Origin: Patescibacteria group bacterium
GTDB taxonomy: Bacteria > Patescibacteriota > Minisyncoccia > 2-02-FULL-40-12 > GWA2-44-9
Assembly (NCBI GenBank): GCA_038065515.1
Contig: JBBTQV010000047.1
Span: 1 to 48,558, forward strand
Direction of reading: 5' to 3'
DNA length: 48,558 bases
In this document: positions 6,888 through 43,502 of the stretch, one piece after another
How the letters are laid out: each line of letters opens with the position of its first letter
Numbering within the stretch: the stretch's first letter is position 1
Made by a program: the position numbers and the translations under genes
Notes under the pieces: generated by a model
Databases searched by the model: none
What the model was told of the DNA's origin: nothing
The model's input: the letters and a program-made list of their open reading frames with translations, nothing else

Positions 6888-6893
6888 AAACAA

Positions 6894-6919: not shown

Positions 6920-6931
6920 TTTCCTTTTTTA

Positions 6932-10903: not shown

Positions 10904-10937
10904 TTCATATACCCCCTTTCTTTTTATAAGCAGCTTA

Positions 10938-10999
10938 TTAGCTACTTAGCTTCTTAGCTTCTTAGGCATTTCCTACAAGCTAAAAAGCTAAAAAGCTAA
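10938..10999 (-). repeat. octamer tandem repeats forming a 20-bp hairpin between HIT and rpsU
   Basis: TTAGCT(A/T)C x3.6 (10938-10966) faces AGCTAAAA x2.5 (10978-10999). The arms pair perfectly on the minus-strand RNA with two G.U pairs; on plus these are C.A mismatches. A second palindrome ATAAGCAGCTTAT is at 10926-10938. Confidence 0.6.
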
Positions 11000-11346: not shown

Positions 11347-11348
11347 GA

Positions 11349-15502: not shown

Positions 15503-15669
15503 AGCGTTGACCTTTCTGCCCCAACACGGGGCGTAACATCGGTTTTCAACGACCGATCTGGGCGGGATGCCCAGCGCACTACTATTATATCGAGGTTTGT
15601 TGTGAAAGTCAATGGCTCGTAATGGTTCAATACCTTGGAATACTTCCGAAATCATGGTACAGTGACTGA

Positions 15670-17496: not shown

Positions 17497-17856
17497 ATGA
17501 CTACAGACCAAGGTATCGTGATCATTATTGCGGTGCTCGGCATTGCCGGAGTGTACCAGTTCTTTCTGGGAAAGCGCACGAAGGCGGTACGGGTCACCGG
17601 CGATATCGACATCGTCGTGGACGGCGGCTATACGCCAGACACCATCGAAATTCCTTCGGGCAAGACCACGACCATCCACTTCTTCCGCAAGGATCCGTCC
17701 AGTTGTCTGGAAGAAGTGATTATCAGTGAATTCAAGATTCGCCGCGCCTTGCCGTTAAGCGAGCGGGTTGATGTGCAGATAACACCCGAGATGCCGGGAG
17801 CATTCAAGTTCTCGTGCGGAATGGGTATGTATCATGGCACTATCATCGTCCGCTAA
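17497..17856 (+). CDS. membrane-anchored cupredoxin-like protein
   Basis: N-terminal TM. FKFSCGMGMYHGTIIV matches the C-terminus of the preceding protein. Confidence 0.7.
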   Translation: MTTDQGIVIIIAVLGIAGVYQFFLGKRTKAVRVTGDIDIVVDGGYTPDTIEIPSGKTTTIHFFRKDPSSCLEEVIISEFKIRRALPLSERVDVQITPEMPGAFKFSCGMGMYHGTIIVR

Positions 17857-17863
17857 TACATCT

Positions 17864-25806: not shown

Positions 25807-25813
25807 TTTGGGT

Positions 25814-27532: not shown

Positions 27533-27554
27533 CAGTTAATATTATACGGAGGGA

Positions 27555-28631
27555 ATGTCCTGGATCGATACTGTCAACAACTCGCTTTTTCGCTTGTCAC
27601 TGAAGGATAAGATGCTTTTTGCGCGCCACATGGACATGATGACGCGCTCAGGGATGCAAACGCTTGATGCGCTGGAGATTCTTAAAAAACAGACCAGGAA
27701 CAAGTCGTTTCTCCGCATGCTGGACAGTCTTATCGCGGATGTCAGAAATGGTCAGTTCCTGTCAGTCGGCATGCAACGCTATCGGAATATATTCGGTGAC
27801 TTTTTTATCAACCTCATCAAGGTCGGTGAAACATCAGGAACGCTCTCTGAAAACTTCAAGTATCTCGCTGAAGAGCTTGCCAAAAAAGGCGAACTGCGGA
27901 GCAAGATCCGCGGCGCCATGGCGTATCCCATCATTATTCTGTTCGCTACCTTGGGTATTACCGGACTCCTCTCATTCTTCATCTTTCCGAAAATTCTTCC
28001 GGTGCTCCGGAGCCTGAACACGACGCTTCCGCTTTCAACACGGATGTTCATTGCCTCTTCAGAATTCTTGTTCGCCTATGGTCTGTATATGATCCTTGCC
28101 CTTATTCTCTTTCTCATTGTGTTCTTTATGCTTTTGCGCATACGCCGCTTCAAGCTTGCTTGGCACGGCATCATCCTGAAAATTCCGTATGTGGGCCGTC
28201 TCTCTACGGAAATCAATATCATCGGATTGTCCCGTACGCTCAATTTACTGCTTCGCGGCGGCGTCAAAATTGTCGAGGCATTGGATATCACCGCCGACAC
28301 TTTGAGCAGCTTAGTCTATCAGGATGAAGTGCGACGCATCGCGGAGACTGTCCGGCGAGGCGAGCCGATGAGCCGTGGGATGATTGCCAACCCACGGCTG
28401 TTTCCGGCCACTTATGCGCAAATGTCCAGCGTTGGAGAGAGTACCGGAAAACTTGATGAAACCATGGTCTTTCTGGCGGATTTCTACGAAAGCGAACTCG
28501 ACAACTCCACAAAGAGCATGAGCAGTGTATTAGAGCCTGCCTTGCTGTTAGTGATGGGCGGCATCGTTATGTTTGTCGCGATTTCCATTATTACCCCCAT
28601 TTACTCCATGTCCCAGAGTTTGGGACGCTGA
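27555..28631 (+). CDS. pilC: type IV pilus platform protein PilC/GspF
   Basis: Two GspF repeats and three TM segments. GGAGGG lies upstream. Confidence 0.9.
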   Translation: MSWIDTVNNSLFRLSLKDKMLFARHMDMMTRSGMQTLDALEILKKQTRNKSFLRMLDSLIADVRNGQFLSVGMQRYRNIFGDFFINLIKVGETSGTLSENFKYLAEELAKKGELRSKIRGAMAYPIIILFATLGITGLLSFFIFPKILPVLRSLNTTLPLSTRMFIASSEFLFAYGLYMILALILFLIVFFMLLRIRRFKLAWHGIILKIPYVGRLSTEINIIGLSRTLNLLLRGGVKIVEALDITADTLSSLVYQDEVRRIAETVRRGEPMSRGMIANPRLFPATYAQMSSVGESTGKLDETMVFLADFYESELDNSTKSMSSVLEPALLLVMGGIVMFVAISIITPIYSMSQSLGR

Positions 28632-28632
28632 C

Positions 28633-30390
28633 ATGCGGAATCCTAATGCACAATCGGGGTTTACCGTCATCGAGGTGCTCATCGGTTTGGCGATTCTGAC
28701 TATTGTCAGCACGAGCATTTATTTTTCGTATGCGAATGTGTTGGAAATCGTTCAGACGGCACAGTACAACAACGCCGCATTGAGCATCATGGAGTCGCGC
28801 ATCGAGACCGCACGCAATATGCGGTATGAAGATGTGGGGGTGATCGGCGGCGTACCGGCCGGAAAACTCAATCAAGTCGAGACCGTCACGCTCGGCTCCG
28901 TCCCGTTTACCCTGCATGCCTATGTACGCAACATCGATGACCCGTTCGACGGCACTATCGGTGGCACTCCTAATGACACGGCGCCTGCCGACTATAAGCT
29001 CGTCGAATTCCAGCTGACCTGCGATACCTGCACACGATATAAACTCCTCACCATGGTGACATATGTCGCCCCAAAGAATTTGGAGACCGCGAGCCGCAAT
29101 GGAAACCTGTTCATTCGCGTTCTAAATGCCTCCGGTATTCCCGTCAGCGGCGCAACCGTTCATGTAACCAATACACATGTGAATCCGCATGTCGACCTGA
29201 CCGATATCACGAACAATGCGGGCCTGTTGCAGCTGGTTGATATTGCAACAAGTTCTGCCGGCTATCATATAACCGTCAGTAAGGCCGGGTACAGTAACGA
29301 CCAGACCTATCCTCCGGGAAATCCGGTAAATCCGCTCAAACCTGACGCGACCGTCGCAAATCAGCAGCTCACGATTGCCACTCTCGCTATCGACCGCGTC
29401 GGCACGCTCACCGTTCGGGCACGCACGCAATTTTGCGCACCAGTCACCGGTTTTGATTTCTTGATGACCGGCGGCAAACTGATCGGTACACAACCGGATG
29501 TTCCGAAGTATTCCTCCTCGCTGGTAACAGACACCGACGGATATTTCATCAATAGCGGCGTTGAGTGGGATACCTATGCCATCCGCCCCACCGATACCGT
29601 CGACGACATTGCCGGCACAATATCATCGCTTTCGTTCACAATGGATCCCGACATGACCCGAACAATGGTGTGGCAAATTGCATCGCGCTCACAAGATGGT
29701 CTGTCAGTTTCTGTTACCGACCAAAATAGCCTACCGCTTGATGGCGCGCAAGTACAGATGACAGGAACGGGATACGACCGTACACAGACAACCGGCAGTT
29801 GGACATTGGAGCAATCTGATTGGTCTTCCGGTCAATATGTCGATAAAAGCAGCTTCCTGGACACATCCGTATCGGGCCAATTGACGCTGATGTTATCCAA
29901 CGGTTCGTACGCCAGCGCGGGGCAAGAGTGGCTTATCTCCGAGTCCTACGATCTGGGGACATCGAGCACGAACTTCACCACCTTGAACTGGGCACCCGCA
30001 TCCCAACCGCCACAAACGGGTCCTGACTCATTGCAATTTCAACTGGCCACCAACAATGACAATACAACCTGGAGTTGGGTTGGCCCTGACGGGACGCCTT
30101 CGTCATTCTTTACCGCGCCTGGACAGGCAATTCCGGCTACACTGGCCAGCAATCGCTATTTGCGCTATCGCGCGTATTTGAGTACGGCGGACGATACGGT
30201 AACCCCCACCCTGCAAGATGTAGCAATCGGTTTCTCGTCCGGTTGTGTGCTATCGGGCCAGGCCTACTTCAATGGGCTTGGCGCGGGCTCATACACCGCC
30301 ACCATAACCCTCGCAGGATATCAAGCCATTATTTCAACCATCAACATCAGCGATACCTGGCAACGCGCGTCTATACAACTCTCCCCATGA
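28633..30390 (+). CDS. large (585 aa) prepilin-type minor pilin
   Basis: N-terminal QSGFTVIEVLIGLAIL cleavage/methylation motif. CarboxypepD_reg-like segment (IRVLNASGIPVSGATVHVTN). Confidence 0.75.
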   Translation: MRNPNAQSGFTVIEVLIGLAILTIVSTSIYFSYANVLEIVQTAQYNNAALSIMESRIETARNMRYEDVGVIGGVPAGKLNQVETVTLGSVPFTLHAYVRNIDDPFDGTIGGTPNDTAPADYKLVEFQLTCDTCTRYKLLTMVTYVAPKNLETASRNGNLFIRVLNASGIPVSGATVHVTNTHVNPHVDLTDITNNAGLLQLVDIATSSAGYHITVSKAGYSNDQTYPPGNPVNPLKPDATVANQQLTIATLAIDRVGTLTVRARTQFCAPVTGFDFLMTGGKLIGTQPDVPKYSSSLVTDTDGYFINSGVEWDTYAIRPTDTVDDIAGTISSLSFTMDPDMTRTMVWQIASRSQDGLSVSVTDQNSLPLDGAQVQMTGTGYDRTQTTGSWTLEQSDWSSGQYVDKSSFLDTSVSGQLTLMLSNGSYASAGQEWLISESYDLGTSSTNFTTLNWAPASQPPQTGPDSLQFQLATNNDNTTWSWVGPDGTPSSFFTAPGQAIPATLASNRYLRYRAYLSTADDTVTPTLQDVAIGFSSGCVLSGQAYFNGLGAGSYTATITLAGYQAIISTINISDTWQRASIQLSP

Positions 30391-30983
30391 ACAACCGGGG
30401 ATTTACTCTCATCGAAATCATCCTTGCGATGGCAATCACCGGGGTAAGCTTGGTGTTTGTCACTTATTTCGCCGTTGATGTTTCCAACTTCGGCACTGAT
30501 TTGAGCAACCGGCTTTCCGCCGAATTTGAACTGCAGCTGACATTGCGTGCCATGGTTTCTGAAATCCGTTCGATGGGACCCGGCGGTAATGGTGCGTACC
30601 CGATTGCTACGGCGACAACCACTACATTTACCTTTTATAGCGACATCGACGGCGATGGCTTATTTGAGCAGGTGCGATATTTTCTCGATGGCACCGTCCT
30701 GAAAAAAGGCGTAATCAAACCGGCGGCGACTCAACCCGTTCAGTATCCCTCCGCAAGTGAAGTCATCAACGAAGCCGTTCATTATATGATACCGGGTACT
30801 ATTTTCACTTATTATCGCGAAGGGTTGCCCGATGAAATGTCGCCGCTGTCGAGTCCCGTGAATGTGGCGGACATTCGTCTTGTAAAAATCACCGGCATCG
30901 TCGACAAAGACACCACCCTGCCGCCGCTTCCGACAACACTTTCCATCACGGCCACCATCCGTAACCTTCGCGGCGAAATATGA
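30387..30983 (+). CDS. prepilin-type minor pilin (PulJ/PilW-like)
   Basis: NRGFTLIEIILAMAITG motif. ATGA overlap with the upstream gene. Confidence 0.75.
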   Translation: MNNRGFTLIEIILAMAITGVSLVFVTYFAVDVSNFGTDLSNRLSAEFELQLTLRAMVSEIRSMGPGGNGAYPIATATTTTFTFYSDIDGDGLFEQVRYFLDGTVLKKGVIKPAATQPVQYPSASEVINEAVHYMIPGTIFTYYREGLPDEMSPLSSPVNVADIRLVKITGIVDKDTTLPPLPTTLSITATIRNLRGEI

Positions 30984-32449
30984 TGACACTATTTAGAAAT
31001 TGGAAATTAGAAATTGGAAATTCCGGCGAAGCCGGTCAGATTACGCTCTATGTGCTTATCTTCAGCGCAGTTTCAATCATCATCTTATCCGGTTTTGTGC
31101 TGTGGGCTGATGCAAACATGAAGGCGGTCTTCCGCGATACTGATAGAGCGCAGGCATTCATGATAGCAGAGGCAGGCGTGGAATATTACCGGTGGCATTT
31201 GGCGCATGCACAGAGCGACTACCAGGACGGCACCGGCGGGGCCGGTCCGTATGTGCACGAGTTTAAAGATAAAGACGGTATCGTTATCGGCGCATTCTCG
31301 CTAGATATCACAGCGCCGCTGGCCGGTTCAACCGTGGTCACTATCAATTCTACCGGTACGGTCACTGCCAACCCCACCATCAGTAAAATCATTGAGGCAA
31401 AAATGGCCATCCCGTCTTTTGCAAAATACGCCATTGCGGTCAATGATTATGTGCGGTTCGGCGAGGGCACTGAAATCTTCGGACCAATTCACTCAAATGG
31501 CGGAGTACGGATGGATGGTCTCGCGCATAATTTGGTCACCAGCAGTGTGCTCAAGGTTAATGATCCTGACCATTCGGGAGGCGACGAAATAGGCGTACAC
31601 ACCCATGTAGTTCCCATCGACCCCAGCCCGCCGGCACCTGCGCCAAGCCGGCCGGATGTGTTTATGGTGGGCCGAGAATACCCGGTTGCTCCGGTCGATT
31701 TCGCCGGCATCACACAAGATTTGGCAAACATCAAAACTGACGCACAGGCTAGCGGGTTCTACCGTGGCCCCTCCAATGATGACGGGTATCATATTGTCCT
31801 AAAAACAAATGACACCTTCGATTTCTACAAAGTTACAAAGATCCTGAATGCTCCCAACGGCTGCATTAGTGTTCTCGGTCAACAGGATTGGGGGACCTGG
31901 ACTATCGAGAATGAAACTTTGTTGGGCAATTACGCATTCCCAGCTAACGGCCTTATTTTCATCGAAGACAGTATGTGGGTAGACGGCCAAATCAACACCG
32001 CCCGCGTTACCATTGCAGCTGCAACTTTCCCTGAAAATGCCTCTAAGTACGCCCATATCACGGTCAACAAAGATCTGTTGTACACCAACTATGATGGCCA
32101 GGATATTATCAGTCTCATTGCACAGGGGAATTTCAATGCCGGTCTCCAGAGCGAGGATGACCTTCGTGTGGATGCAGCCCTCATTGCACAGAACGGTCGT
32201 GTCGGGCGTTATTATTACCGCGCACCATCAGGCAACCAGAACCGGTGTGGCCCGTACCATACCCGCCAGAAAGTCACCCTTTACGGCATGATATCGTCCC
32301 GCGAGCGGTACGGCTTTGCGTACAGCGACGACACCGGGTATGTCCTCCGCGTCATTATTTATGACGCCAATCTCCTCTACGGACCCCCGCCGAGCTTCCC
32401 GCTCACCGCCGATTTCTACACGCCTATTTTCTGGAATGAAATAAAGTAG
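30980..32449 (+). CDS. PilX_N-like pilus-associated protein (489 aa)
   Basis: TM segment followed by QAFMIAEAGVEYYRWHL. ATGA overlap with the upstream gene. Confidence 0.65.
   Translation: MMTLFRNWKLEIGNSGEAGQITLYVLIFSAVSIIILSGFVLWADANMKAVFRDTDRAQAFMIAEAGVEYYRWHLAHAQSDYQDGTGGAGPYVHEFKDKDGIVIGAFSLDITAPLAGSTVVTINSTGTVTANPTISKIIEAKMAIPSFAKYAIAVNDYVRFGEGTEIFGPIHSNGGVRMDGLAHNLVTSSVLKVNDPDHSGGDEIGVHTHVVPIDPSPPAPAPSRPDVFMVGREYPVAPVDFAGITQDLANIKTDAQASGFYRGPSNDDGYHIVLKTNDTFDFYKVTKILNAPNGCISVLGQQDWGTWTIENETLLGNYAFPANGLIFIEDSMWVDGQINTARVTIAAATFPENASKYAHITVNKDLLYTNYDGQDIISLIAQGNFNAGLQSEDDLRVDAALIAQNGRVGRYYYRAPSGNQNRCGPYHTRQKVTLYGMISSRERYGFAYSDDTGYVLRVIIYDANLLYGPPPSFPLTADFYTPIFWNEIK
30994..31021 (+). repeat. 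heptanucleotide repeat TAGAAAT/TGGAAAT x4 in coding sequence
   Basis: tagaaat tggaaat tagaaat tggaaat; encodes RNWKLEIGN. Confidence 0.9.
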
Positions 32450-32592
32450 TGCGTGTGGATAAGAGTAGTGGTGCCCCCGTGATATACTAGAGAGTGAATC
32501 AAGGTCGATAGTGTTGGGGCGCTCCATGCATGACGCCTCAACGCAATGCACTCGTTGTCAGTTATTTATTAACCAACAAACTATCTAATACT

Positions 32593-33048
32593 ATGAAGGG
32601 AATTGTGAGAAAGCAAAAAGGGTTTACCCTTATCGAAATTCTGGTCGTTATCGGTATCATCGCCATTTTGGCGGCAGTTGTTATCGTAGCCCTGAACCCA
32701 GCCCGTCAGTTCGCACAGGCCCGCAACACTCAACGCTGGAGCAATGTGAACACTCTGCTGAACGCTGTCGGCCAACGCATGGCTGATAACCGCGGCATCT
32801 GGAGTTCGACTTGTGGTGCCTCAACAGTCGCGATGCCATCATCGGCGAATGTTATCGGAAGTGGTGCCGGAAACACGAACCTCGAAGCTTGTGTGGTATC
32901 GGACTATGTATCCACGATGGTTGTAGATCCGTCTGTCGGAACTCTCGCATCTACCGGATACACAATCTACAGAGCGGCAGGAACAGGCCGCATTACGGTC
33001 AATGCTCCGGCGGCAGAACTTTCGGAAGTGATTTCAGTCACCCGTTAA
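32593..33048 (+). CDS. type IV major pilin candidate
   Basis: KGFTLIEILVVIGIIAILAAVVIVAL class III signal. 151 aa. An extended -10 box TGATATACT at 32480-32488 gives a ~95 nt leader. Confidence 0.8.
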   Translation: MKGIVRKQKGFTLIEILVVIGIIAILAAVVIVALNPARQFAQARNTQRWSNVNTLLNAVGQRMADNRGIWSSTCGASTVAMPSSANVIGSGAGNTNLEACVVSDYVSTMVVDPSVGTLASTGYTIYRAAGTGRITVNAPAAELSEVISVTR

Positions 33049-33113: not shown

Positions 33114-34799
33114 ATGAAGCGATTGCTGTTATTCATAATTCTCGGACTCCTGTGGGCATTTCCCGCGCATGCGTCACTCTTTTACGAGTTCAATCCTGAC
33201 TATTCTCAAAGCCTGCTCGTAGCATCCTCAGAAACTGTCTCCGAAATATTTCTCCCCTTGAACGATTATCTCGGGGCTCTTGATTTTTGGGTCAGTAACG
33301 CCAATACAGCAGGTGATGCAACTTTTACGATGTACAACGCAGCCGGAACGGTGGTAGCGGAGCGAACGGTTGCGGTTCCCGCAATCGCTGATACGGCGGA
33401 CGGTACGCGGCTGCGCGTGACCTTGCCCGCACAGATTGCCGTAACCTCAAACGCAGCGTATCGCATCCGCATTGTCACCGCGACACCCACATTCCGTTTG
33501 TACTATGCCGACGCAACACAGCTGTTGGCTCACAACGGAGTTCCGCTACCGTCATACACCGGCGGACTGGCACGCATAGGAACCGATGACATGGGATTCA
33601 GCTTCAAGTTTGCGCTCTATGAGAACCATGAGACCGCACCGCCCCTATTGACCGGGGTTACCGTTACACAGCAGAATCCGCATCAAGCCACTATCAACTT
33701 CAATGCAAATGAACCGGTAGACCGCCATCTGCAATACGGAAGTACAACCATCAATTGGAATGGCGAGTACTCTTCATGCGCTCCGAATATACAGGCCTGT
33801 ACGGTAACACTGGCAGTCTCTCCCGCTACAACCTATCAGTACACGCTTACCGTACAAGATGTGTGGGGAAACCAAACGACAACGACGGGAACATTTACCA
33901 CATTGGACGAGGGTCAGACCCCTGCACCGACTCCGACCGCTACACCCACCCCTACGATTAGTGTCACAATAACCCCGACGCCGACGGCCACACCGGACAC
34001 CACCGGCCCATCATTGAGTAATGTCCGCCTTGTTTCTTCAACACCGAACAGCGCCGCGTTTGCGTGGACAACGAACGAAGCCGCGAACAGTTTGGTTGTT
34101 GTCCAAATGCTCCCGCTGTTCATCTCTGCCGGAGCGAATAATGACAGCGCGTTGGAGCTTGAACATTTTGTGAGCGTAGGCGCCCTTACCTCCGATACAT
34201 TGTACCGCGCCACAATTACATCGTCTGACATTGCCGGTAATTCAGGAGTGGCGACGCTTGACTTTATGACACCTCGGTTGACGCCAACGCCCAGCCCCGG
34301 AACGACAGTACCTCCTCCCGCCATTGTGTCACCCGCTCCGGCACCGAGTAGTACACCCGCAGTATCAGGTTCGAGTGATAATCCACAACTCACCTGGTCT
34401 CCACCTATTGGTGGTGAACCGTCAAACGGATACCGCATTGATATCTTCGACAGTGCGAACAATTTGATTAAGACCATTACCGTTGCACCCGGACAACATC
34501 AGATTGCCTTGGGTGCACTCCCGACGGGTAACAACCGCGTCGTGGTGTACGCAAACAATAACGGTGTATTTGAAAAAGTTGCCGCGCCGACAGCGATAAC
34601 CACGCGACCGCCGAAACCATTTCTCGAGCGCGCGCTGGGAGCTTTGCCGTATATTCTCGGCGGCGTTGTTTTTGTCATACTCGGAGCGGTTGTTGTTACG
34701 AAGCTCCGTATGCCAAAAACGCCTCCCATGCCTCCGGCGGTCGTTCCCGTTGCACCATCGCCGATTACCGTAAGTCCATCAACGACCGCGGCTGAATAA
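33114..34799 (+). CDS. secreted, C-terminally membrane-anchored surface protein with FN3-like repeats and Thr/Pro linkers
   Basis: Signal peptide LLWAFPAHA, PTPTATPTPT linkers, FN3-like blocks and a terminal TM segment YILGGVVFVILGAVVV. TGGTATACT lies 8 nt before the ATG. Confidence 0.7.
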   Translation: MKRLLLFIILGLLWAFPAHASLFYEFNPDYSQSLLVASSETVSEIFLPLNDYLGALDFWVSNANTAGDATFTMYNAAGTVVAERTVAVPAIADTADGTRLRVTLPAQIAVTSNAAYRIRIVTATPTFRLYYADATQLLAHNGVPLPSYTGGLARIGTDDMGFSFKFALYENHETAPPLLTGVTVTQQNPHQATINFNANEPVDRHLQYGSTTINWNGEYSSCAPNIQACTVTLAVSPATTYQYTLTVQDVWGNQTTTTGTFTTLDEGQTPAPTPTATPTPTISVTITPTPTATPDTTGPSLSNVRLVSSTPNSAAFAWTTNEAANSLVVVQMLPLFISAGANNDSALELEHFVSVGALTSDTLYRATITSSDIAGNSGVATLDFMTPRLTPTPSPGTTVPPPAIVSPAPAPSSTPAVSGSSDNPQLTWSPPIGGEPSNGYRIDIFDSANNLIKTITVAPGQHQIALGALPTGNNRVVVYANNNGVFEKVAAPTAITTRPPKPFLERALGALPYILGGVVFVILGAVVVTKLRMPKTPPMPPAVVPVAPSPITVSPSTTAAE

Positions 34800-35322: not shown

Positions 35323-35377
35323 GTATGGTGGGTCAAATCTTCGTATTGTCTCAATGGCTATTGGCGGACCGCGAGTG

Positions 35378-35450
35378 TGGACCGTACCAGATTCGAACTG
35401 GTGACCTCCTCATTGCAAATGAGGCGCTCTACCAACTGAGCTAACGGCCC
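35378..35450 (-). tRNA. tRNA-Ala (anticodon UGC)
   Basis: Cloverleaf GGGCCGT/ACGGTCC with G3:U70, anticodon loop TTTGCAA and T-loop TTCGAAT. CCA is not encoded. Confidence 0.9.
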
Positions 35451-35456
35451 GAATGG

Positions 35457-35531
35457 TGGTGGGCGCACTAGGAATCGAACCTAGGGCCTCCGTCTTATCA
35501 GGACGGCGTTATACCACTTAACTATGCGCCC
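35457..35531 (-). tRNA. tRNA-Ile (anticodon GAU)
   Basis: Acceptor stem GGGCGCA/TGCGCCC, anticodon loop CTGATAA and T-loop TTCGATT. CCA is encoded. Lies 6 nt upstream of tRNA-Ala. Confidence 0.9.
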
Positions 35532-36216: not shown

Positions 36217-36239
36217 ATGTTAAGGGGCCCCCTTAACAT
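36217..36239. terminator. palindromic hairpin between convergent genes
   Basis: atgttaagggg c ccccttaacat. Confidence 0.55.
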
Positions 36240-36270: not shown

Positions 36271-37218
36271 CTAGCGCTTTCTGGCAACAACTTTCCTGAC
36301 TGCGCTGATGATGCCTTCCGCGGTCAGGCCGAATGCTTTCATCAGTTCATCGGGACTTCCAGATTCCCCGAATCGGTCCTGCGTACCGACGAATTCAATG
36401 GGAACGGGAGCACGGCGTGCCAGCACTTCGGCGACAGCTGAACCCATGCCACCGGCAACCTGATGCTCTTCAGCGGTCACGACCGCGCCGCAGGCCTGCG
36501 CGGCGGCGGTGATTGTTTCTTCATCCATCGGCTTTATCGTGTGATTATTGATGACCGTGCATTTGATGCTGTCTTTTGCTAGCGCGTCCGCAGCAAGAAG
36601 CGCTTCATATACCAGTGTACCGCAGGCGATGATTGCAACATCTGTGCCCTGCCGGAAGTTTTCGGCTTTTCCGATGGTGAACGGCGAGTCAGGAGTTGTG
36701 ATAACCGGTGACTTTTCGCGGCCAAGCCGCAGATAGGTCGGCTGTCCGTTGAACGCTGCCGCAACCGTCGCCTTTTCGGCCTCGATGGCATCGCAGGGCA
36801 CGATAACGACCATACGCGGGAGCACCCGCATCAGTGCAATGTCTTCGAGCGCCTGATGCGTTGCGCCATCCGGTCCTACGCTGATACCGGCGTGCGCACC
36901 TGCGATTTTGACCGGCATGTTGTTGAGGCAGATATTGGTGCGAATTTGCTCATTGTTGCGGCCCGGACTGAAGGTAGCATAGCTGGAGATGAACGGTATC
37001 TTTCCCGTAGCCGCCATGCCGGAGGCGATAACCGCCATGTTTTGCTCGGCGATGCCAACCTCGATAAACCGATGGGGGAATTTCTCGGCGAACCAGTGGC
37101 TCCGTGTGGATTCAGTGAGATCGGCGCACAGCACGACAATGCGTTCGTCCTGCTCACCCGCGCGAACCAAACCTTTGCCGTATCCATCGCGAATTGCAAT
37201 AAGTTCGGACTTGTTCAT
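36271..37218 (-). CDS. transketolase, C-terminal (pyrimidine-binding) subunit
   Basis: IAEQNMAVIASGMA and GATHQALEDIALMR motifs. The Met at 37218 gives MNKSELIAIRDGYG. Confidence 0.9.
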   Translation of the reverse strand: MNKSELIAIRDGYGKGLVRAGEQDERIVVLCADLTESTRSHWFAEKFPHRFIEVGIAEQNMAVIASGMAATGKIPFISSYATFSPGRNNEQIRTNICLNNMPVKIAGAHAGISVGPDGATHQALEDIALMRVLPRMVVIVPCDAIEAEKATVAAAFNGQPTYLRLGREKSPVITTPDSPFTIGKAENFRQGTDVAIIACGTLVYEALLAADALAKDSIKCTVINNHTIKPMDEETITAAAQACGAVVTAEEHQVAGGMGSAVAEVLARRAPVPIEFVGTQDRFGESGSPDELMKAFGLTAEGIISAVRKVVARKR

Positions 37219-37222
37219 ATCA

Positions 37223-37597
37223 TTACGGATTACAACTGCCGCATACATTTGTCATCGTTAGCGAATCGGCCTGATTGGCTTTCAGCGCGCGGCACACAGT
37301 CCGCTGTCCGTCGCTGTCGCATGAATCCCCCACATCCTGACTGGCAAACGAACCGGAAAAATCCAGCCCGAGCACCGCCGGAGCGGTGGGAAGCCCTTGC
37401 ATGATGGCGGCGTACAATTCCTGTTTTTTGGTTCTCGTCACATCGCTCTTCTCAATGGTTGTGACAATAAATGCCATGCGTTTTTGCGAAGCGGCTTGCA
37501 CCGAATGCGCCTGCAGGTACTGCCATCCGCCGAACAGAAACGATGCTCCGGCGAGGAAGAACATCACAGCAGGGAAGATGGCGCGCTTTTCCACCAT
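37223..37597 (-). CDS. hypothetical membrane-anchored Cys-containing protein
   Basis: One TM segment (IFPAVMFFLAGASFLFGGW) and a Cys-rich tail. Tightly packed on the same strand as its neighbours. Confidence 0.5.
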   Translation of the reverse strand: MVEKRAIFPAVMFFLAGASFLFGGWQYLQAHSVQAASQKRMAFIVTTIEKSDVTRTKKQELYAAIMQGLPTAPAVLGLDFSGSFASQDVGDSCDSDGQRTVCRALKANQADSLTMTNVCGSCNP

Positions 37598-37598
37598 G

Positions 37599-38039
37599 TC
37601 AGCGGGTAAAACAGTCCAGACATCCAAGACCGTCGATATTTAATTTTATTTGGGATGCCTGTACGCAGGCATCCCCCACACCCTTACCGCGCAAACAGGA
37701 GGCATTGAGACCGGCCAGCTGTCCCGCAAGGTTCACACAATTACTGACAAGCGCTTCGGAACACACGGGACCCTGCACCGGCGTGTCGGCACTGGAACGG
37801 GACAAGTCTATGACGGGTGGAGGCGTTCCGAATGTTCCCAGCGCCGCATCAACGATACTGGCCTTTGCGGCAGGACCGATGCTCGCATTGTTGACCGCGC
37901 CGATGACGCGATACGCCTGTTCGTACACAAAACCCTTGGCGTTACCGGCTTCGATATTCTTGTAGACACCGAAGCTCAATGACGCAACCGATATCAAAAC
38001 CGAGAATATCATGGTCAGATCGCGCAGCATAGAAGACAA
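37599..38039 (-). CDS. hypothetical membrane-anchored protein with six Cys in the ectodomain
   Basis: N-terminal TM segment MIFSVLISVASLSFGV. TTG start at 38039; ATG alternatives at 38030 and 38012. Confidence 0.5.
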   Translation of the reverse strand: MSSMLRDLTMIFSVLISVASLSFGVYKNIEAGNAKGFVYEQAYRVIGAVNNASIGPAAKASIVDAALGTFGTPPPVIDLSRSSADTPVQGPVCSEALVSNCVNLAGQLAGLNASCLRGKGVGDACVQASQIKLNIDGLGCLDCFTR

Positions 38040-38756
38040 TCAGGAACGGAAGTCCGGCGGGTTTTTGTGTGCTTCGTCGGAATACGACTTCGCTTCATTG
38101 CGGCGGAACGCATCACTCCCCGCATACCCGACATACAGAAGCGCGACGATACTGCCAACGATAAGAGCCAGAATGGTTGTCTCACCCGGCCCTGTCTGCA
38201 CCTGTGCGACACCGCCGATAGAAGTCGGGCTTGGTGTGGGGGTGTATGAGTAGTACGGGGTCGGAGTCAGCGTTGCTGCTCCTGCTGTTACAACCGACAG
38301 GGTAACGGGGCTTGTAGCGCCCAACACAGTAGCGTTCGTGTTTTCTGTTATGGCAATTGCCGTTGGCACTCCGAATGTCAGCGGCGCAGAACCGGCCGCT
38401 TTTCCACGGAACACCAGTGTAAAGGCCATCCCTGTACCCGCACGGGCGGGATTGGAGCCGGCCGAGAAGTTCATCCGTCCGACAACATTATCGATGGTTG
38501 CCGTTCCCAGTCCGCTGCTGAAAAAACTGCCTTTGTCGATAGACACACCTTCAAGTTTGTCGGCCGGGTAGCGCACTTCGAGCGTCGCCGCGGACACCGT
38601 TCGGTCGTTGGCGTTGATGTCAACGGTCACGGTGATAAGCTGACCAACGGTAACCGATTGCATTGCGCTCTGCATGGTAAGCGACGGTTCAACCGCAGCC
38701 AGCGCCGTCAGCGGCATGAGAAGCGTAAACGCGAGAATGGAGATGGGGTATCGCAT
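38040..38756 (-). CDS. cohesin-domain protein with C-terminal membrane anchor
   Basis: Signal peptide and a cohesin-like block (ITVTVDINANDRTVSAATLEVRYPADKLEGVSIDKGSFF...MAFTLVFRGKAAGSAPLTF). Then a TPTPYYSYTPTPSP linker and the TM segment ILALIVGSIVALLYVGYAG. Confidence 0.6.
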   Translation of the reverse strand: MRYPISILAFTLLMPLTALAAVEPSLTMQSAMQSVTVGQLITVTVDINANDRTVSAATLEVRYPADKLEGVSIDKGSFFSSGLGTATIDNVVGRMNFSAGSNPARAGTGMAFTLVFRGKAAGSAPLTFGVPTAIAITENTNATVLGATSPVTLSVVTAGAATLTPTPYYSYTPTPSPTSIGGVAQVQTGPGETTILALIVGSIVALLYVGYAGSDAFRRNEAKSYSDEAHKNPPDFRS

Positions 38757-38763
38757 AGACAGA

Positions 38764-39834
38764 TTATTTCGTTATAGTTCCGAAAAAAGTAACAACCGCA
38801 TTAAAGTCCACAATATCTATTACTCCGTCTTTGTTTTCATCGCCAAGCACTGCGCTACTGGGCACTTTCCCGAAATTCGCCACGACAATGTTGAAGTCCG
38901 ATATATCCACCTTGCCATCAACATTCACATCACCCCGGATTGGGGCCTGCGCAGTAATCGTCGCCTGCGCAACGGTAACCGTTGCTGTCGCCGTTGCGAT
39001 TCCGCCCGGACCCGTCGCGGTCAGCGTATAGATTTTTGCTGTCACGGGACTTACGGAAACCGAGGTTCCCGTGACAGCACCGACGCCATTGTCGATGGAG
39101 ATGGAAGTAGCGTTGCTTACCGTCCAGGAAAGCACGGAAGATCTGCCGCTCGTAATAGAGTCGGGAGTCGCAATAAATGACGAAATGGAGGGGCCCGGAG
39201 TAGCTGTGGCAACAATGCTCTGAACGCATGCCCTGTTGCTCCAACCGGCAAGAGTCATATCAAGGACATTGGTGTCCACCCCCTTGGCGGTCACCAGAGT
39301 GTTTGCCATGTCAACAGTGGCGCATACCTGCTTTGCGGTTGAATCTGTCGGCAAAGAATAATCGACGGTAGCCACGGTTGTTGCGCTCAAGGCGCCCGGC
39401 TGACCGGCAGGGATACCGGCGGCGAAACTTAAGATGCCACCGGCCAGCAGATGCGCCGGTTCCAAAATCTGACTGAATACCGTGGAACCGATGAGCCCGC
39501 TGACATTGGTGAATGTAGCGTCGGAAATACCCGCCCTGAACTGGAAACCGGTAATCTCGAGGTCTCCGGGCTCCAGAACGAATCGCACTTTGGATGCCGC
39601 CTCATCAAATACAGGGTAGAGCTTGACCGAATTCGTGACCGGCGGCCCAAGTGCCCCGGGTTCTGCCGCAAAGAACCGGCCTACATCAATCCCGTAGCGC
39701 GGACCGAAATATACTACCGCCGCAGCGATAACGACAAGAACACTGACAACCATGAGCACTTTTGTGCGGGCTGACATTCCACTCGCCTGAACAACCGGCG
39801 TTCCCATACCGACACCTTGTGTTGGAGTATCCAT
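38764..39834 (-). CDS. membrane-anchored protein with Ig-like domains and C-terminal dockerin
   Basis: N-terminal TM. The C-terminus carries a duplicated Ca-binding dockerin repeat: GDVNVDGKVDISDFNIVV ... GDENKDGVIDIVDFNAVV. Confidence 0.7.
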   Translation of the reverse strand: MDTPTQGVGMGTPVVQASGMSARTKVLMVVSVLVVIAAAVVYFGPRYGIDVGRFFAAEPGALGPPVTNSVKLYPVFDEAASKVRFVLEPGDLEITGFQFRAGISDATFTNVSGLIGSTVFSQILEPAHLLAGGILSFAAGIPAGQPGALSATTVATVDYSLPTDSTAKQVCATVDMANTLVTAKGVDTNVLDMTLAGWSNRACVQSIVATATPGPSISSFIATPDSITSGRSSVLSWTVSNATSISIDNGVGAVTGTSVSVSPVTAKIYTLTATGPGGIATATATVTVAQATITAQAPIRGDVNVDGKVDISDFNIVVANFGKVPSSAVLGDENKDGVIDIVDFNAVVTFFGTITK

Positions 39835-39850
39835 ATGAATAATTATACAT

Positions 39851-41569
39851 CTACTGCCCGAAATGCGAAACGATATCGTTGAAATCGAGGATGCTCACTT
39901 TGCCGTCTCCGTTAACATCGCCCAGTATGTTTGCGCCGGTCTGGCCAAAGTGCGAAACGGCTATATTAAAATCGAGAATATCTACTCTATCATCGCCGTT
40001 GGAGTCGCCTTGGGTACTGCTCAACGGACCGGCTGCGCTTTCGTTGCTCCGACATGTTTCCCCGGCGCATATCTTCATCGCATTCACCTTATCCCGAAGT
40101 CCATACTGGGCGATGAGCGATTCGGCGCGCACCGGGTCAAGCACGACAATGTTGCTTAGTTCATACGGATCAGCCTGCACATCATACAGTTCGGTTTCTC
40201 CGTTGACATACTCGACATACTTGTAAGCCCGGGTCCGGATGCCGTATGTTTGGGGATAGGGAGCGTCACCGGTCGGCCAATTTTCAATCAAGAAGTTGCG
40301 GCGCCAGTTGTTCAGGGAGAGAGTGTCATTCGGCATTCCGGGCGCCAGAAGCGAACGGAACGATTTGCCGTCCATAAAGCCCGGAACTGCCGCCCCGGCA
40401 ATCTCAGCAAATGTAGGGGTAAGATCGTGGTCCATAATAAAATAGTCCAGATATTGCCCCGCCCCGACTCCCGGACCCCGTATGATAAGTGGTACACGAA
40501 TGGATTCTTCGTACGCCAGTCCTTTGCCTTTTGGAATTCGATGTTCGCCCAATTGATATCCGTTATCAGACATGAAAACGATATAGGTATTTTCGAGACG
40601 CCCATCGGACTGTAACTCTTTAATGACTCTCGCAACCATTTCTTCAACTCCGAGCATCATCTGTAACCGTTCACGGAAATCCGCATCAATTTTTGCGATA
40701 CTCGGGTCTCCCGTATCGGGAAGCGGCGTCGGATATATCTGTTGCAACCACTGTGGTTTGTCTTGCATATCCGTCTCGTTGAACGCAAGTCCACGTGGAG
40801 CTTGCACTCCGGTAAACTGCGTCTCGGAACCGGGAGCTCCGGGTCCGGGTTCGTGAGGAGCGGGAGGAGTCAGGTACAGGAAGAATGGCTTCCCTTGGTC
40901 ACGCGTTTCACGGATAAAATTCAGCGCTTTTTCCGTCAGCACCGTCGTGCTGTAATCAGCGGGGCTGGACCCATAGCTTATCGAGGCACCCCCGAGATGG
41001 CCGGGGATATCATTTTCGAACATCGCGTAGTTATACTTCGCCATGGATAACGCACCGACCCACCGGTCCCATCCGGGCGGGATGTGCGGAGGCGTATGCA
41101 CGCCATACTTGTTGAGATACTTACCGATTAAGGCAGTTTGATAGCCTGCATCATGAAGCCACACCGCCAGCGTCGAGGATTCCAACGGCTTGAATACTTC
41201 AGCCCCGCCATTCGGTTGTGCATTCGTAAGTACGCCGGTGTTGTGTGAGTACTGCCCACGGAGAAAAGAAGAGCGCATCGGGCAGCACAACGCATTCGGT
41301 GTTATAGCATACCTGAATGTCGTACCGAGATCTTGAAGATACGCCTTGATGGTTGTGAGGTACGGCATCTCCTTCCACGACAAGTCGTCAGCAAGAATGA
41401 AAACGATGTTCGGCCGCCCGACAGTCGCCGGCGGCCCGAGGAATGACGGTTGTGCCGCAGAAATAAGGCCAACCTGCTGTGTCACACCGAATCGCGATGC
41501 GAGCAAGCTGCCCGCAATCAACAAGAGGACTCCTCCGAGTACCAGTGATTTTTTTAGTTCGGGATGCAT
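39851..41569 (-). CDS. secreted Cys-type sulfatase with C-terminal dockerin
   Basis: IVFILADDLSW and the CCPMRSSFLRGQ (C-x-P-x-R) sulfatase signature. The tail is GDSNGDDRVDILDFNIAV ... GDVNGDGKVSILDFNDIV. Confidence 0.85.
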   Translation of the reverse strand: MHPELKKSLVLGGVLLLIAGSLLASRFGVTQQVGLISAAQPSFLGPPATVGRPNIVFILADDLSWKEMPYLTTIKAYLQDLGTTFRYAITPNALCCPMRSSFLRGQYSHNTGVLTNAQPNGGAEVFKPLESSTLAVWLHDAGYQTALIGKYLNKYGVHTPPHIPPGWDRWVGALSMAKYNYAMFENDIPGHLGGASISYGSSPADYSTTVLTEKALNFIRETRDQGKPFFLYLTPPAPHEPGPGAPGSETQFTGVQAPRGLAFNETDMQDKPQWLQQIYPTPLPDTGDPSIAKIDADFRERLQMMLGVEEMVARVIKELQSDGRLENTYIVFMSDNGYQLGEHRIPKGKGLAYEESIRVPLIIRGPGVGAGQYLDYFIMDHDLTPTFAEIAGAAVPGFMDGKSFRSLLAPGMPNDTLSLNNWRRNFLIENWPTGDAPYPQTYGIRTRAYKYVEYVNGETELYDVQADPYELSNIVVLDPVRAESLIAQYGLRDKVNAMKICAGETCRSNESAAGPLSSTQGDSNGDDRVDILDFNIAVSHFGQTGANILGDVNGDGKVSILDFNDIVSHFGQ

Positions 41570-41572: not shown

Positions 41573-42436
41573 TTATTCGTGTTCGCTTTGAATCTTGCCG
41601 CCCAGCGTGCGCAGTTCAGTGAGGAATACCTTGGCCTGCTCCGGACTGGGGGGGATGCCGTGCCACTTGTAGTCGAATTCTATTTCCTTGATTCCCTTGC
41701 CCGGAATCGTATGTGCGATGATGACCGTGGGTTTTTCGTGAATTGCCTTCGCCTGCTGAATCGCATCGACGAACGCTTCAATGTTGTGACCGTCAACTTC
41801 CAACACATGCCAGTTGAACGCTTCCCATTTGGCGCGCAAAGATTCCAACGGCATCACATCTTCGGTCATGCCGTCGATTTGGATATTGTTGCGGTCGATG
41901 ATGCCGGTCAGATTTGCCAAGCGGTACTTTCCCGCAAGCATCGCCGATTCCCAGATGATGCCCTCGTCCTGCTCACCGTCGCCCATGAAGCAATAGGTGC
42001 GCCACGCGGCTTTGTCCATGCGCGCGGCAAGCGCCATGCCGATGGCCTGCCCCAAACCGGAACCAAGCGGGCCTGAAGTCGTCTCGACGCCGGGCAGGCG
42101 TTCGCGCTCGGGATGACCCTGTAGCCGTGTGCCAAATTTGCGCAGGGTGAGGAGCTCTTCGACAGGGAAGTACCCTGCATGTGCCATCGCGGCATAGCGT
42201 ACGGGCGTGATGTGGCCGTTGGAGAGCACGAGCCGGTCACGGTCGGGCAATTCGGTGTTCTTCGGGTCGTGGTGCAACACATGAAAATACATGGCCGTGA
42301 AAATATCGGCCATGCCCAACGGCCCCGCGGTGTGCCCTGAACCGGCGGCAACGAGCATTGAAATAATGCTCTGGCGGATTTCATTCGCCTTCACCTCCAA
42401 CGCTTTGATTTTCTCTTCAGAAATATATTCAGACAA
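41573..42436 (-). CDS. transketolase, N-terminal (TPP-binding) subunit
   Basis: GHTAGPLG, SNGHITP and GDGEQDEGIIWE...IIDRN motifs. TTG start 10 nt after the gap stop. Confidence 0.9.
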   Translation of the reverse strand: MSEYISEEKIKALEVKANEIRQSIISMLVAAGSGHTAGPLGMADIFTAMYFHVLHHDPKNTELPDRDRLVLSNGHITPVRYAAMAHAGYFPVEELLTLRKFGTRLQGHPERERLPGVETTSGPLGSGLGQAIGMALAARMDKAAWRTYCFMGDGEQDEGIIWESAMLAGKYRLANLTGIIDRNNIQIDGMTEDVMPLESLRAKWEAFNWHVLEVDGHNIEAFVDAIQQAKAIHEKPTVIIAHTIPGKGIKEIEFDYKWHGIPPSPEQAKVFLTELRTLGGKIQSEHE

Positions 42437-42446: not shown

Positions 42447-43502
42447 CTATTGGCTCAATGCTTTCGCTATCTCCAATACATGCATGACGAGAGAGTTTGT
42501 ATATCCGAATTCATTGTCGTACCACGCGTAGACACAGCAGAGGTCACCGTCGACAACCTTTGTGAGCGAGAGGTCGGCGATGGCGGCATGCGGATTGCCG
42601 ACGATATCGCTGGAGACCAATTGGTCGCGCGTCACCGAGAAAATACCCTGCCAAGCGTCTTCGGCGGCGGCAATTTCCAGAATGTCGTTGATTTCGTCAA
42701 CGGTCGTCTTCTTTTTTGAAATAAATGTGATGGCCGACAGCGAACCCGTGAGCACGGGAACGCGCATCGAGATACCGTCGAATTTTTCTTTCAGTTCAGG
42801 AATTGCACGGGCAACGGCAATCGTTGCGCCTGTGGTACTGGGACTGATGTTTGCCGCCGCGGCGCGCCCGCGACGGAAATCGGTGCCTTTAACCGGCCCG
42901 TCAATCAGACTCTGCGTGGCGGTGTAGCCATGTACTGTATTGAGAAACGCTTTTTTCACGCCGAGCTTTTCGGTCAATATTTGGAGAATAGGTGAAGCGG
43001 AGTTCGTAGTGCAGGAACCATTACTCGACAGCGTGCAGGTTTTCAGCGCTTTCTCGTTCACACCCATCAGCACCGTTCTTGCATCGGGCCCGTCATCGTC
43101 TTTTGCCGGAGCGGTGAGCACAACGCGCCTCGCACCCGCCTTGATGTGCACGCGGGCTTTTTCGAAACTCTCGAATGCACCGGTGGCTTCAACGACAATA
43201 TCGACATCAAGCGCTTCCCAGGGGAGTTTGAGCGGGTCTTTCTCCTGCAAAAACATCATCCGCCGCGCTTGCCCCGAGCCTATCGAGGGGCCGATAACGA
43301 GGAACTTTTTCCCGTCGGATTCTTCGATGGAAACGGGCTGGCCATAGTGACCGTATGCGGAATCGAAACGGAGCAGATAGGCGAGATTCTCCGGATCGCC
43401 CAAGTCGTTGATTGCCACCACATTGAGCTCCGGCTTGGTAAGCGCGAGCTTGAGAAACGCCCGTCCAATGCGACCGAAACCGTTGAGTGCGATGTTTGCC
43501 AT
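42447..43502 (-). CDS. gap: glyceraldehyde-3-phosphate dehydrogenase
   Basis: NGFGRIGR, SCTTN and WYDNEFGY motifs. Confidence 0.95.
   Translation of the reverse strand: MANIALNGFGRIGRAFLKLALTKPELNVVAINDLGDPENLAYLLRFDSAYGHYGQPVSIEESDGKKFLVIGPSIGSGQARRMMFLQEKDPLKLPWEALDVDIVVEATGAFESFEKARVHIKAGARRVVLTAPAKDDDGPDARTVLMGVNEKALKTCTLSSNGSCTTNSASPILQILTEKLGVKKAFLNTVHGYTATQSLIDGPVKGTDFRRGRAAAANISPSTTGATIAVARAIPELKEKFDGISMRVPVLTGSLSAITFISKKKTTVDEINDILEIAAAEDAWQGIFSVTRDQLVSSDIVGNPHAAIADLSLTKVVDGDLCCVYAWYDNEFGYTNSLVMHVLEIAKALSQ

Follow-up and report, generated by a model that had tools for sequence, protein, structure and literature searches.

A candidate membrane-anchored cohesin-dockerin display cassette with exchangeable cargo in the transketolase gap of a Patescibacterium

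What are genes for a cohesin-like membrane protein, two dockerin-bearing proteins and two small Cys-rich proteins doing in a Patescibacteria group bacterium, where they separate the halves of a split transketolase? To answer this, we analyzed the whole 48.5-kb stretch of DNA on which they lie (contig JBBTQV010000047.1; hereafter the window), in which an eight-gene block, entirely on the minus strand, runs from gap to tktC. All of the open reading frames (ORFs), coordinates and strand assignments given for this block in an earlier reading of the letters (the original prediction) are present, including the five genes between the transketolase halves. We think it reasonably likely that three of the five, encoding an anchoring scaffoldin (38040..38756), an adaptor-like protein (38764..39834) and a sulfatase-dockerin cargo (39851..41569), are a minimal non-cellulosomal cohesin-dockerin display system occupying a recurrent insertion site, with cohesin-dockerin binding as the predicted interaction. 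The anchor, comprising a signal peptide, one cohesin, a TP-rich linker, a C-terminal transmembrane (TM) segment and a conserved tail, would be fixed in the cytoplasmic membrane. The proteins would leave the cell by the Sec route and then probably be cleaved at a shared AA(V)EP site, and calcium-dependent cohesin-dockerin binding would hold the cargo, here a Cys-type S1 sulfatase, on the cell surface. The cargo slot after tktN would be exchangeable, conserved leader and dockerin DNA serving as recombination handles.

Cohesin, dockerin and sulfatase modules of the cassette

The reading of 38040-38756 as a signal peptide, a cohesin-like domain, a TP linker and a TM anchor is borne out by hydropathy, by an AlphaFold2 (AF2) model and by Foldseek. 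The signal peptide (residues 1-22) is canonical (TALA/AVEP) and is followed by the cohesin (25-156), the TP-rich linker (160-180), a TGPGETT motif, a TM segment (193-213, or 195-213 by hydropathy) and a cytoplasmic tail. When the check suggested by the original prediction was made, a search with the cohesin family PF00963 together with fold prediction, the Pfam score came out just below the cut-off (22.9 versus 24.1 bits) and the fold matched cohesins: the model (predicted local distance difference test, pLDDT, ~90 over residues 25-135) has ~50 top matches in the PDB, almost all of them cohesin modules (E 3e-8, TM-score up to 0.80), the best including the non-cellulosomal Archaeoglobus fulgidus cohesin 2xdh (TM-score 0.77). 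Most of the 12 homologues of the anchor have a precomputed PF00963 match. The anchor is thus predicted from its model to contain a nine-stranded beta-sandwich of the cohesin fold.

The C-terminal segment of the anchor, VxQVQTGPGETT-TM-YVGY..FRRNEAKSY..PPDFRS (38040-38200, residues ~183-238), exceeds the cohesin domain in conservation, even where overall identity is 43%. We rejected the TGPGETT motif and TM tail as a known sorting signal (LPXTG, PEP-CTERM or PGF-CTERM), NCBIfam having given one weak, irrelevant match, and treat the tail as a plain TM anchor. Its conservation points tentatively to a specific partner in the membrane or the cytoplasm; to name the two small proteins of the cassette, sm1 and sm2, as candidates is speculation. 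Elsewhere in the window, a 561-aa protein (33114-34799) with several TP-rich linkers, a C-terminal TM anchor and no Pfam match shares the linker and anchor style of the cohesin protein and adjoins a type IV pilus/pseudopilin cluster (25808-33048).

The adaptor-like protein was described in the original prediction as an Ig-domain protein with a dockerin. Both modules are there, but a second cohesin-fold domain had been missed. The AF2 model (pLDDT ~88 in the beta domains) has a TM segment at residues 22-44, a cohesin fold at ~68-205, an Ig-like domain at ~214-290 and a dockerin with two helices at 300-352. The best Foldseek matches of the N-terminal domain are cohesins, namely CaCohA2 (6kgf, TM-score 0.70) and a Clostridium perfringens cohesin-FN3 construct (2w1n), and the counterpart at a divergent related locus, L013, matches PF00963 directly (E 0.004). 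As modeled, the protein is a TM-cohesin-Ig-dockerin chain with an architecture like that of an adaptor scaffoldin, and the cassette holds two cohesins and two dockerins in total. The Ig-like module itself (38965-39195, residues 214-290) has counterparts of 50-69% identity in otherwise dissimilar proteins from Acidobacteria and Deltaproteobacteria (Pal lipoproteins, phospholipase C and PKD-repeat proteins), which points to a widely shared or mobile domain.

The duplicated dockerin repeats that had been noted in both proteins were recovered by regular expression: the sulfatase and the adaptor each carry two D-x-N-x-D-G-x-V-x-I-x-D repeats, and no other such motif occurs in the window. In Pfam, the sulfatase dockerin lies above the cut-off (Dockerin_1, 23.4 bits versus 22.9) and the adaptor dockerin below it (19.2 bits); orthologues of the latter score 24-30 bits, and the cargo dockerins of relatives lie above the cut-off, reaching 39.7 bits. 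Both C-termini are accordingly predicted to hold the two ~22-residue calcium-binding F-hand repeats of a dockerin. The two dockerins belong to different classes. The cargo class (39854..40012, ...ILDFN..VSHFGQ by regular expression and Pfam) has type I dockerins 5nrk and 4fl4 as its best PDB matches, and its doubled GDxNGDGxVNILDFNxVVSHFGQ repeat occurs in all eight cargos of the related loci with a mean column identity of 82%. The adaptor class (38779..38937, ..VDISDFNIVVANFGK ... IDIVDFNAVVTFFGT, by regular expression, alignment and PDB search) follows the consensus RGDVNxDGKVDISDFNIVVANFGK ... GDENKDGxIDIxDFNAVVTFFGT and matches dockerin 2y3n best (6e-5). The C. perfringens dockerin 2jnk is among the best matches of both. 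The classes differ at repeat positions 11, 18/19 and 22, which are known to determine the specificity of type I dockerins, and each class is kept across lineages.

The cargo begins with a leader and TM segment (residues 1-47), followed by an S1 sulfatase domain (~50-480) and the dockerin (520-572). PF00884 is covered over the full model (4e-48), SGSH_C matches at 9e-21, and 57 solved sulfatases match at E < 1e-10, the best being the N-acetylglucosamine (GlcNAc)-6-O-sulfatase BT4656 of Bacteroides thetaiotaomicron (5g2v, 2e-39). The C-x-P-x-R signature reported earlier is present as C95-C-P-M-R99, with Cys95 (codon at 41285..41287) the predicted formylglycine (FGly) precursor, and aligns with S-G-P-S-R of 5g2v, the FGly position being Cys in the window enzyme and Ser in the 5g2v chain. 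The FGly motif, DD, GK..H, SD(N/Q)G..GEH and K motifs of BT4656 all align with the window enzyme, in which the catalytic and metal motifs are ADDL 60, GKY 149, SDNG 334, GEH 341 and KGKG 347. Domain and residues together predict an S1 sulfatase. BT4656 differs in being periplasmic, in being encoded in a polysaccharide utilization locus and in lacking a dockerin. Many homologues of the cargo have been named N-acetylglucosamine-6-sulfatase by the Joint Genome Institute, and the enzyme appears closest to exo-acting GlcNAc-6-O-sulfatases; the substrate assignment is tentative because identity to 5g2v is only moderate. As a Cys-type sulfatase, it needs an anaerobic sulfatase-maturating enzyme (anSME) or a formylglycine-generating enzyme (FGE). 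Neither is encoded in the window according to Pfam scans of the main ORFs and a CxxxCxxC regular expression, which found no radical-SAM enzyme, in agreement with what had been claimed.

Export of all components is predicted from their N-termini, and attachment of the scaffold to the cell from the C-terminal TM segment of the anchor. Hydropathy places N-terminal TM segments in the sulfatase, the adaptor, sm1 and sm2. All cargos in the related loci except the Kazal cargo of L089 share the leader MHPELKKxLxLGGxxLLIxGGLLAWRFGxVPQIGKFFAAEP; an AA(V)EP motif follows the hydrophobic segment in anchor, adaptor and cargo alike; and a signal peptidase I is encoded in the window.

Recurrence of the cassette and exchange of its parts

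To compare the site among relatives, we searched by tblastn 80 species loci located through tktN, six copies of the window locus and five further loci reached via the cohesin family. The original prediction took the transketolase halves to be normally adjacent, which holds poorly in this lineage. Among 76 Paceibacteria loci (72 species loci and four near-identical copies of the window locus), the halves are <200 nt apart in 28, 200-450 nt apart in 13 and >450 nt apart in 35, four of the last being copies from the window population. The ORFs intervening in the >450-nt loci mostly encode small membrane or Cys-rich proteins. Separation of the halves is common in the lineage, and the gap is a recurrent permissive site, not the mark of a unique event. 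In the window, both halves are intact by Pfam yet lie 4.35 kb apart, unlike the adjacent genes of a split transketolase operon, and we found no direct or inverted repeats flanking the cassette there that would mark a mobile element.

The comparison of transketolase synteny that had been suggested places the cassette, in the same order and at the same site, in about nine lineages (nine by our count, eight with an adaptor). From tktN to tktC, the window and L001 have sulfatase, adaptor, cohesin anchor, sm1 and sm2. L092 has a 606-aa dockerin protein before the same series; L087 has cargos of 702, 344 and 585 aa before adaptor, anchor, sm1 and sm2; L088 has a 586-aa cargo, an adaptor lacking the Ig module, anchor, sm1 and sm2; and L021 has a 576-aa cargo, adaptor, anchor, sm1, sm2 and a 95-aa ORF. 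On the short contig of L093, from which no transketolase gene was recovered, sulfatase, adaptor, anchor and sm1 are followed by the contig end, and in L091, with tktN off the contig, at least two cargos precede adaptor, anchor, sm1 and sm2. L089 and L090 carry a Kazal-dockerin cargo, the anchor, sm1 and sm2, followed in L089 by a 94-aa ORF, with no adaptor at the locus. The divergent L013, with proteins ~30% identical, has ORFs of 227-257 aa and 90 aa, a 678-aa dockerin protein, a TM-cohesin-Ig-dockerin protein and a TM-cohesin-linker-domain protein. Across the related loci (1.28 Mb), neither the anchor motif nor paired dockerin repeats turned up outside cassette loci, apart from one isolated motif match in L022.

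One to three cargos stand directly after tktN at each locus, and they differ widely: a sulfatase, a GH99/DUF5010-like protein, a Kazal_2 protein and unknowns of 576, 606, 625, 702 and 344 aa. The original prediction of a membrane scaffold displaying dockerin proteins therefore stands as far as the cohesin anchor beside two dockerin proteins is concerned, given the domains, the folds and the recurrence in about nine lineages; the dedicated desulfation complex does not, since at least six cargos with no relation to one another occur in the same slot among relatives, the sulfatase being one of them. At the nucleotide level, unrelated cargos are 64-81% identical in the leader and 66-82% identical in the dockerin, while their middles are at the random level of ~50%; in L087, the dockerin-stop-start-leader junction is repeated over ~285 nt. 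Conserved ends around unrelated middles are the pattern that cargo exchange by recombination would produce, and the leader and dockerin ends plausibly act as the handles. The sulfatase has only two close orthologues (85-88% identity), both with dockerin. Identity drops to at most 46% among the next homologues, which lack a dockerin and come, where the source is named, from Actinomycetota, Chloroflexota and a cyanobacterium. Because the relatives beyond the close orthologues are thus distant, dockerin-less and from other phyla where named, the comparison suggests that the cargo slot took up a catalytic domain of foreign origin.

Three side observations concern cassettes of relatives. In L013, the cohesin protein shares its C-terminal domain (..IYIINESGFKRLFLNPIIFSFYGHLGG..) with another protein, secreted and Cys-rich, that is encoded at the cassette start (10836-11519 and 14876-15919); the domain may be an alternative anchoring or wall-binding domain in place of the TM tail. 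The 702-aa cargo of L087 (1973-4081) shares short segments (APSVSLKSSGGCTANCTAFFEATA..., CFTTPCDPI..CP) with L013 at 11544-11816 and 10836-11519, which links the divergent L013 cassette to the clade of the window by descent or exchange. In L090, the Kazal-dockerin cargo is split into ORFs of 293 and 100 aa (6234-7486), which may reflect a frameshift, a pseudogene or an assembly error.

The adaptor varies in another way. Two strain types co-occur in the Hainich, that of the window and L002 and that of L001, L003, L004 and L005. When the window is aligned with L001, a ~700-bp segment of the adaptor gene (38870..39560), running from about strand 3 of the cohesin through the Ig-like domain to the linker before the dockerin, is only 51-66% identical in nucleotides and contains indels, whereas outside it identity is 96-100% per 100-nt window, mostly 100%, over ~7.6 kb, ragged alignment ends excepted. 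Adaptor proteins of the two strains are 71% identical overall, with the TM segment, strands 1-3 and the dockerin 91-100% identical. The segment looks like an allelic replacement of the exposed cohesin-Ig part. A diversity-generating retroelement was considered and rejected, as the variable stretch is ~700 bp long with indels and ~45% substitutions of all kinds, and there is no reverse transcriptase nearby; recombinational replacement fits better.

The two small genes behave differently from the other three. The original prediction correctly described both products as Cys-rich and membrane-anchored: sm1 (37599..38039) has six Cys and sm2 (37223..37627, in the ORF list) four, each with an N-terminal TM segment by hydropathy, and sm2 always adjoins sm1. 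That they complete the set is not upheld. The order tktN-sm1-sm2-tktC with neither cohesin nor dockerin is found in seven close relatives, the closest cassette-free ones being L007-L009, L011, L012 and L030, so that sm1 and sm2 appear to be earlier residents of the gap whose membership in the display system is uncertain; as necessary parts of a cohesin-dockerin set they are rejected. Nor are they detectably paralogues of each other (BLASTP E 1.7). No match to sm1 was found in Pfam or NCBIfam, and it has only 14 representatives among 1.8 billion clusters. The gap-tktN junction is a variable site as well, since L021 inserts there three tandem paralogous small membrane proteins with MNENFQNESQ... 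N-termini (6493-7851); in L092, the same junction holds an NTP_transf_2/HEPN pair.

Wiring, transcription and the weight of the alternatives

Several findings weigh against a cohesin-dockerin display system. The anchor cohesin and the adaptor dockerin narrowly miss their Pfam cut-offs, and a profile of the anchor family searched against PDB sequences recovers no solved cohesin, which is why the fold comparison was needed. Against the borderline scores speak the PF00963 matches of homologues, the dockerin scores of orthologues and the AlphaFold and Foldseek result. Cargo and adaptor leaders have long c-regions and a poor -3 residue (F-A-A) and may be uncleaved signal anchors; tethering by dockerins would then be redundant, because such leaders would already fix each protein in the membrane. 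With no formylglycine-generating enzyme in the window, sulfatase activity is predicted only. A simple hierarchy from cargo through adaptor to anchor is not universal either, since the L089 locus encodes a cargo-class dockerin and lacks an adaptor. Finally, a promoter-like site within the block could serve its distal genes separately.

If the modules do pair, conservation patterns are only weakly informative on which dockerin binds which cohesin, and two arrangements can be entertained, neither more than tentatively. In the first, which would parallel cellulosomes that possess adaptor scaffoldins, the cargo dockerin would bind the adaptor cohesin, and the adaptor Ig-dockerin dyad would bind the anchor cohesin, giving an extended anchor-adaptor-enzyme tether. 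Two cohesin types and two dockerin classes permit such one-to-one pairing, the gene order cargo-adaptor-anchor is conserved, and strands 1-3 and 6 are the best conserved parts of the adaptor cohesin. The Ig-like domain directly before the adaptor dockerin also resembles an X-Doc dyad, with fold matches that include 3kcp and 4fl4; type II dockerins occur as such dyads. Yet L089 and L090 keep a cargo-class dockerin and the anchor cohesin without an adaptor at the locus, the L088 adaptor has no Ig module, co-occurring strains have the adaptor cohesin replaced but a 100% identical cargo dockerin, and an adaptor with a single cohesin yields no amplification.

The second possible arrangement has cargo dockerins binding the anchor cohesin in all lineages, with the adaptor a separate surface protein, either self-associating through binding of its dockerin to its own type of cohesin or competing for the anchor. 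L089, with nothing but the anchor cohesin and a cargo-class dockerin, is what it would lead one to expect; the strands of the putative binding face of the anchor cohesin are kept even in homologues of 66% and 43% identity, and the cargo dockerin is highly conserved in all lineages. The presence of A. fulgidus 2xdh among the best fold matches of the anchor also favors it, Haimovitz 2008 and Voronov-Goldman 2011 reportedly having described self-binding of the cohesin-dockerin proteins of that organism. On the other side, L089 could encode an adaptor elsewhere in its genome, and direct binding assigns no function to the placement of the adaptor gene, which is kept between those for cargo and anchor.

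Whichever pairing holds, the five genes are probably co-transcribed with gap and the transketolase genes, because the gaps leave no space for terminators. The block begins with gap (42447..43502), its first recognizable gene, encoding a type I glyceraldehyde-3-phosphate dehydrogenase (Pfam Gp_dh_N and Gp_dh_C; NCBIfam TIGR01534, 3e-104). Ten nucleotides after it comes tktN (41573..42436), the thiamine pyrophosphate-binding N-terminal half of transketolase (PF00456 Transketolase_N, 1e-60), which ends 3 nt before the sulfatase gene. The block closes with tktC (36271..37218, with 37248 also given as the start end), the C-terminal half (PF02779 Transket_pyr, 7e-42; PF02780 Transketolase_C, 1e-31). 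Spacing across the eight genes from gap to tktC is 10, 3, 16, 7, 9, 1 and 4 nt; the 0-16 nt reported before thus becomes 1-16 nt as measured. The only two strong hairpins in the scan stand one on each side of the block, a terminator-like one just upstream of gap (43559-43536) and a GC-rich one with a 10-bp stem (36217..36239, no strand assigned) between the convergent tktC and uracil-DNA glycosylase (UDG) genes, the latter likely a bidirectional terminator that closes the block.

We consider it unlikely that internal promoters instead drive the cassette separately from gap and tkt, which would make its link to central carbon genes one of position only. The candidate promoter is the site mentioned above (TTCGCA-16-TATAAT, 39869-39842, 10/12 matches), directly 5' of the adaptor start, and the tolerance of very different inserts at this site in relatives is in keeping with independent transcription. 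However, promoter-like sites (12 versus 6.0 +/- 2.7 expected) and terminator-like sites (14 versus 9.1 +/- 2.8) are only ~2 standard deviations above shuffles, the intergenic gaps are equally short in most relatives' cassettes (1-9 nt), and tktC, which needs expression, could accommodate a promoter of its own only inside sm2.

Least probable of all is that cohesins and dockerins do not pair, uncleaved N-terminal anchors holding each protein in a hot spot for surface-protein genes and the modules serving as generic beta-sandwich or calcium-binding modules for adhesion or stability, for example in host-surface binding: the unrelated membrane or Cys-rich proteins in the tktN/tktC gap of many Paceibacteria, the signal-anchor look of the leaders, the borderline Pfam scores and the frequency with which non-cellulosomal dockerins lack a known partner, as Peer et al. 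2009 are said to have found, would suit it, but dockerin repeats and cohesins co-occur only in the cassette across the related loci (the L022 match aside), at least eight unrelated cargos keep the same dockerin class, which would be difficult to account for if they had no protein partner in common, and the anchor, with a canonical cleavable signal peptide in front and a TM segment at its C-terminus, has the topology of a scaffold.

Surroundings, known systems and significance

The window derives from an uncultured groundwater Patescibacterium of Paceibacteria/Parcubacteria type. The rest of the window encodes ComEC, a class II ribonucleotide reductase, FtsZ/FtsA, histidyl-tRNA synthetase, signal peptidase I, a Cu-ATPase, an H+-PPase and the type IV pilus cluster, genes typical of Paceibacteria/Parcubacteria genomes. 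The nearest relatives of tktN are all from Paceibacteria-type metagenome-assembled genomes (MAGs), and the cohesin gene has identical counterparts on contigs from Hainich groundwater (ENA Hain_H41, H51 and H52) as well as in MAG GCA_964360775.1. Three further features were observed in passing. A tRNA-Ala(TGC) and tRNA-Ile(GAT) pair (35377-35531), whose usual place is the 16S-23S spacer, stands isolated between a C39-like peptidase gene and the UDG gene with no rRNA gene nearby. The pilus ATPase (T2SSE, 25808-27532) has an N-terminal response-regulator receiver domain. At 16135-17487, an HMA domain, a DsbD_2 transmembrane region and a cupredoxin-like domain are fused in a protein adjoining the Cu-type P-ATPase (17834-20098), which may have a role in extracytoplasmic thiol or copper handling for Cys-rich surface proteins.

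Like the cellulosomes of Acetivibrio cellulolyticus (ScaA/ScaB) and Clostridium thermocellum (CipA/OlpB/SdbA), the cassette has cohesin-fold modules (best fold matches 3ghp, 4ums, 6kgf and 1g1k), secreted enzymes that end in duplicated F-hand dockerins, one protein with both cohesin and dockerin, a cell-bound single-cohesin anchor and two dockerin classes differing at specificity positions, all in one gene cluster. It differs in that one cohesin per scaffold rules out multi-enzyme amplification, a C-terminal TM helix takes the place of S-layer homology (SLH) repeats or a sortase signal as anchor, there is no carbohydrate-binding module (CBM), and the cargos (sulfatase, Kazal, GH99/DUF5010-like and unknowns) are not plant-cell-wall carbohydrate-active enzymes; the host is an ultra-small Patescibacterium and the locus sits inside an operon-like gap-tkt block. 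Scans of the window gave no Pfam or NCBIfam match to SLH, CBM or LPXTG. By its sequence features, the cassette is not a strict cellulosome.

Parallels also exist among non-cellulosomal modules, known since the survey that Peer et al. 2009 (FEMS Microbiol Lett 291:1; cited in PMC6487960) are said to have made. As in A. fulgidus (2xdh), a few cohesins and dockerins occur in an organism that is not a cellulose degrader, both of them in one polypeptide, but the window type is a locus of three parts, conserved in about nine lineages, with a slot for exchangeable cargo and a membrane anchor of its own. In the C. perfringens GH84C/GH33 toxin complexes (2w1n, 2jh2, 2vo8 and 2jnk), cohesin-dockerin pairs likewise join enzymes directed against host glycans and not cellulose, and the cohesin-FN3 tandem of 2w1n resembles the cohesin-Ig tandem of the adaptor; there, however, the modules are on large secreted enzymes that bind each other, with no dedicated membrane scaffold and no cargo slot. 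The amylosome of Ruminococcus bromii and the mucinolysome of Limousia (PMC12997984) also use cohesins and dockerins at the cell surface on substrates that are not cellulose. Both are large systems of Firmicutes in which dockerin proteins are numerous, and none of the nine sulfatases in the mucinolysome genome carries a dockerin (PMC12997984), whereas the window cargo is a sulfatase-dockerin fusion. Pairing of the cohesin-dockerin principle with a sulfatase cargo, and hence with predicted desulfation, is not seen in the mucinolysome. In Southlakia, a Patescibacterium in culture, genetics showed a protein with a dockerin domain to be essential (PMC10633639). We found no cohesin-dockerin locus described for Parcubacteria, the candidate phyla radiation or Patescibacteria in the searchable literature, and the cassette is a real and apparently undescribed non-cellulosomal cohesin-dockerin variant.

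The interest of the locus rests on its compact, conserved, cargo-swapping layout in a group whose surface biology is little known, and not on the sulfatase or the position within tkt. A large part of bacterial diversity falls to the Patescibacteria, most of which are thought to live attached to hosts; to our knowledge, almost nothing is known of how their surfaces engage other cells. The likely role of the display system is processing of, or adhesion to, host or environmental glycans or proteins by an ultra-small, probably host-dependent cell. The locus offers a testable model of surface-enzyme display in Patescibacteria and a natural minimal set of cohesin-dockerin pairs for protein engineering, and as a marker it could allow cargo and adaptor variation to be tied to host range or niche. 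A bolder proposal, which we regard as rather unlikely in its entirety, is that the cassette is a strain-variable host-interaction toolkit of an episymbiont, in which a fixed scaffold carries a cargo slot, new surface enzymes or inhibitors enter by integrase-free cassette exchange, through recombination between the leader and dockerin handles, the exposed cohesin-Ig part of the adaptor undergoes allelic replacement, and sm1 and sm2 form a membrane base together with the anchor tail. If that were true, variation in cargo and adaptor would decide the host surfaces on which the cell can settle or feed.

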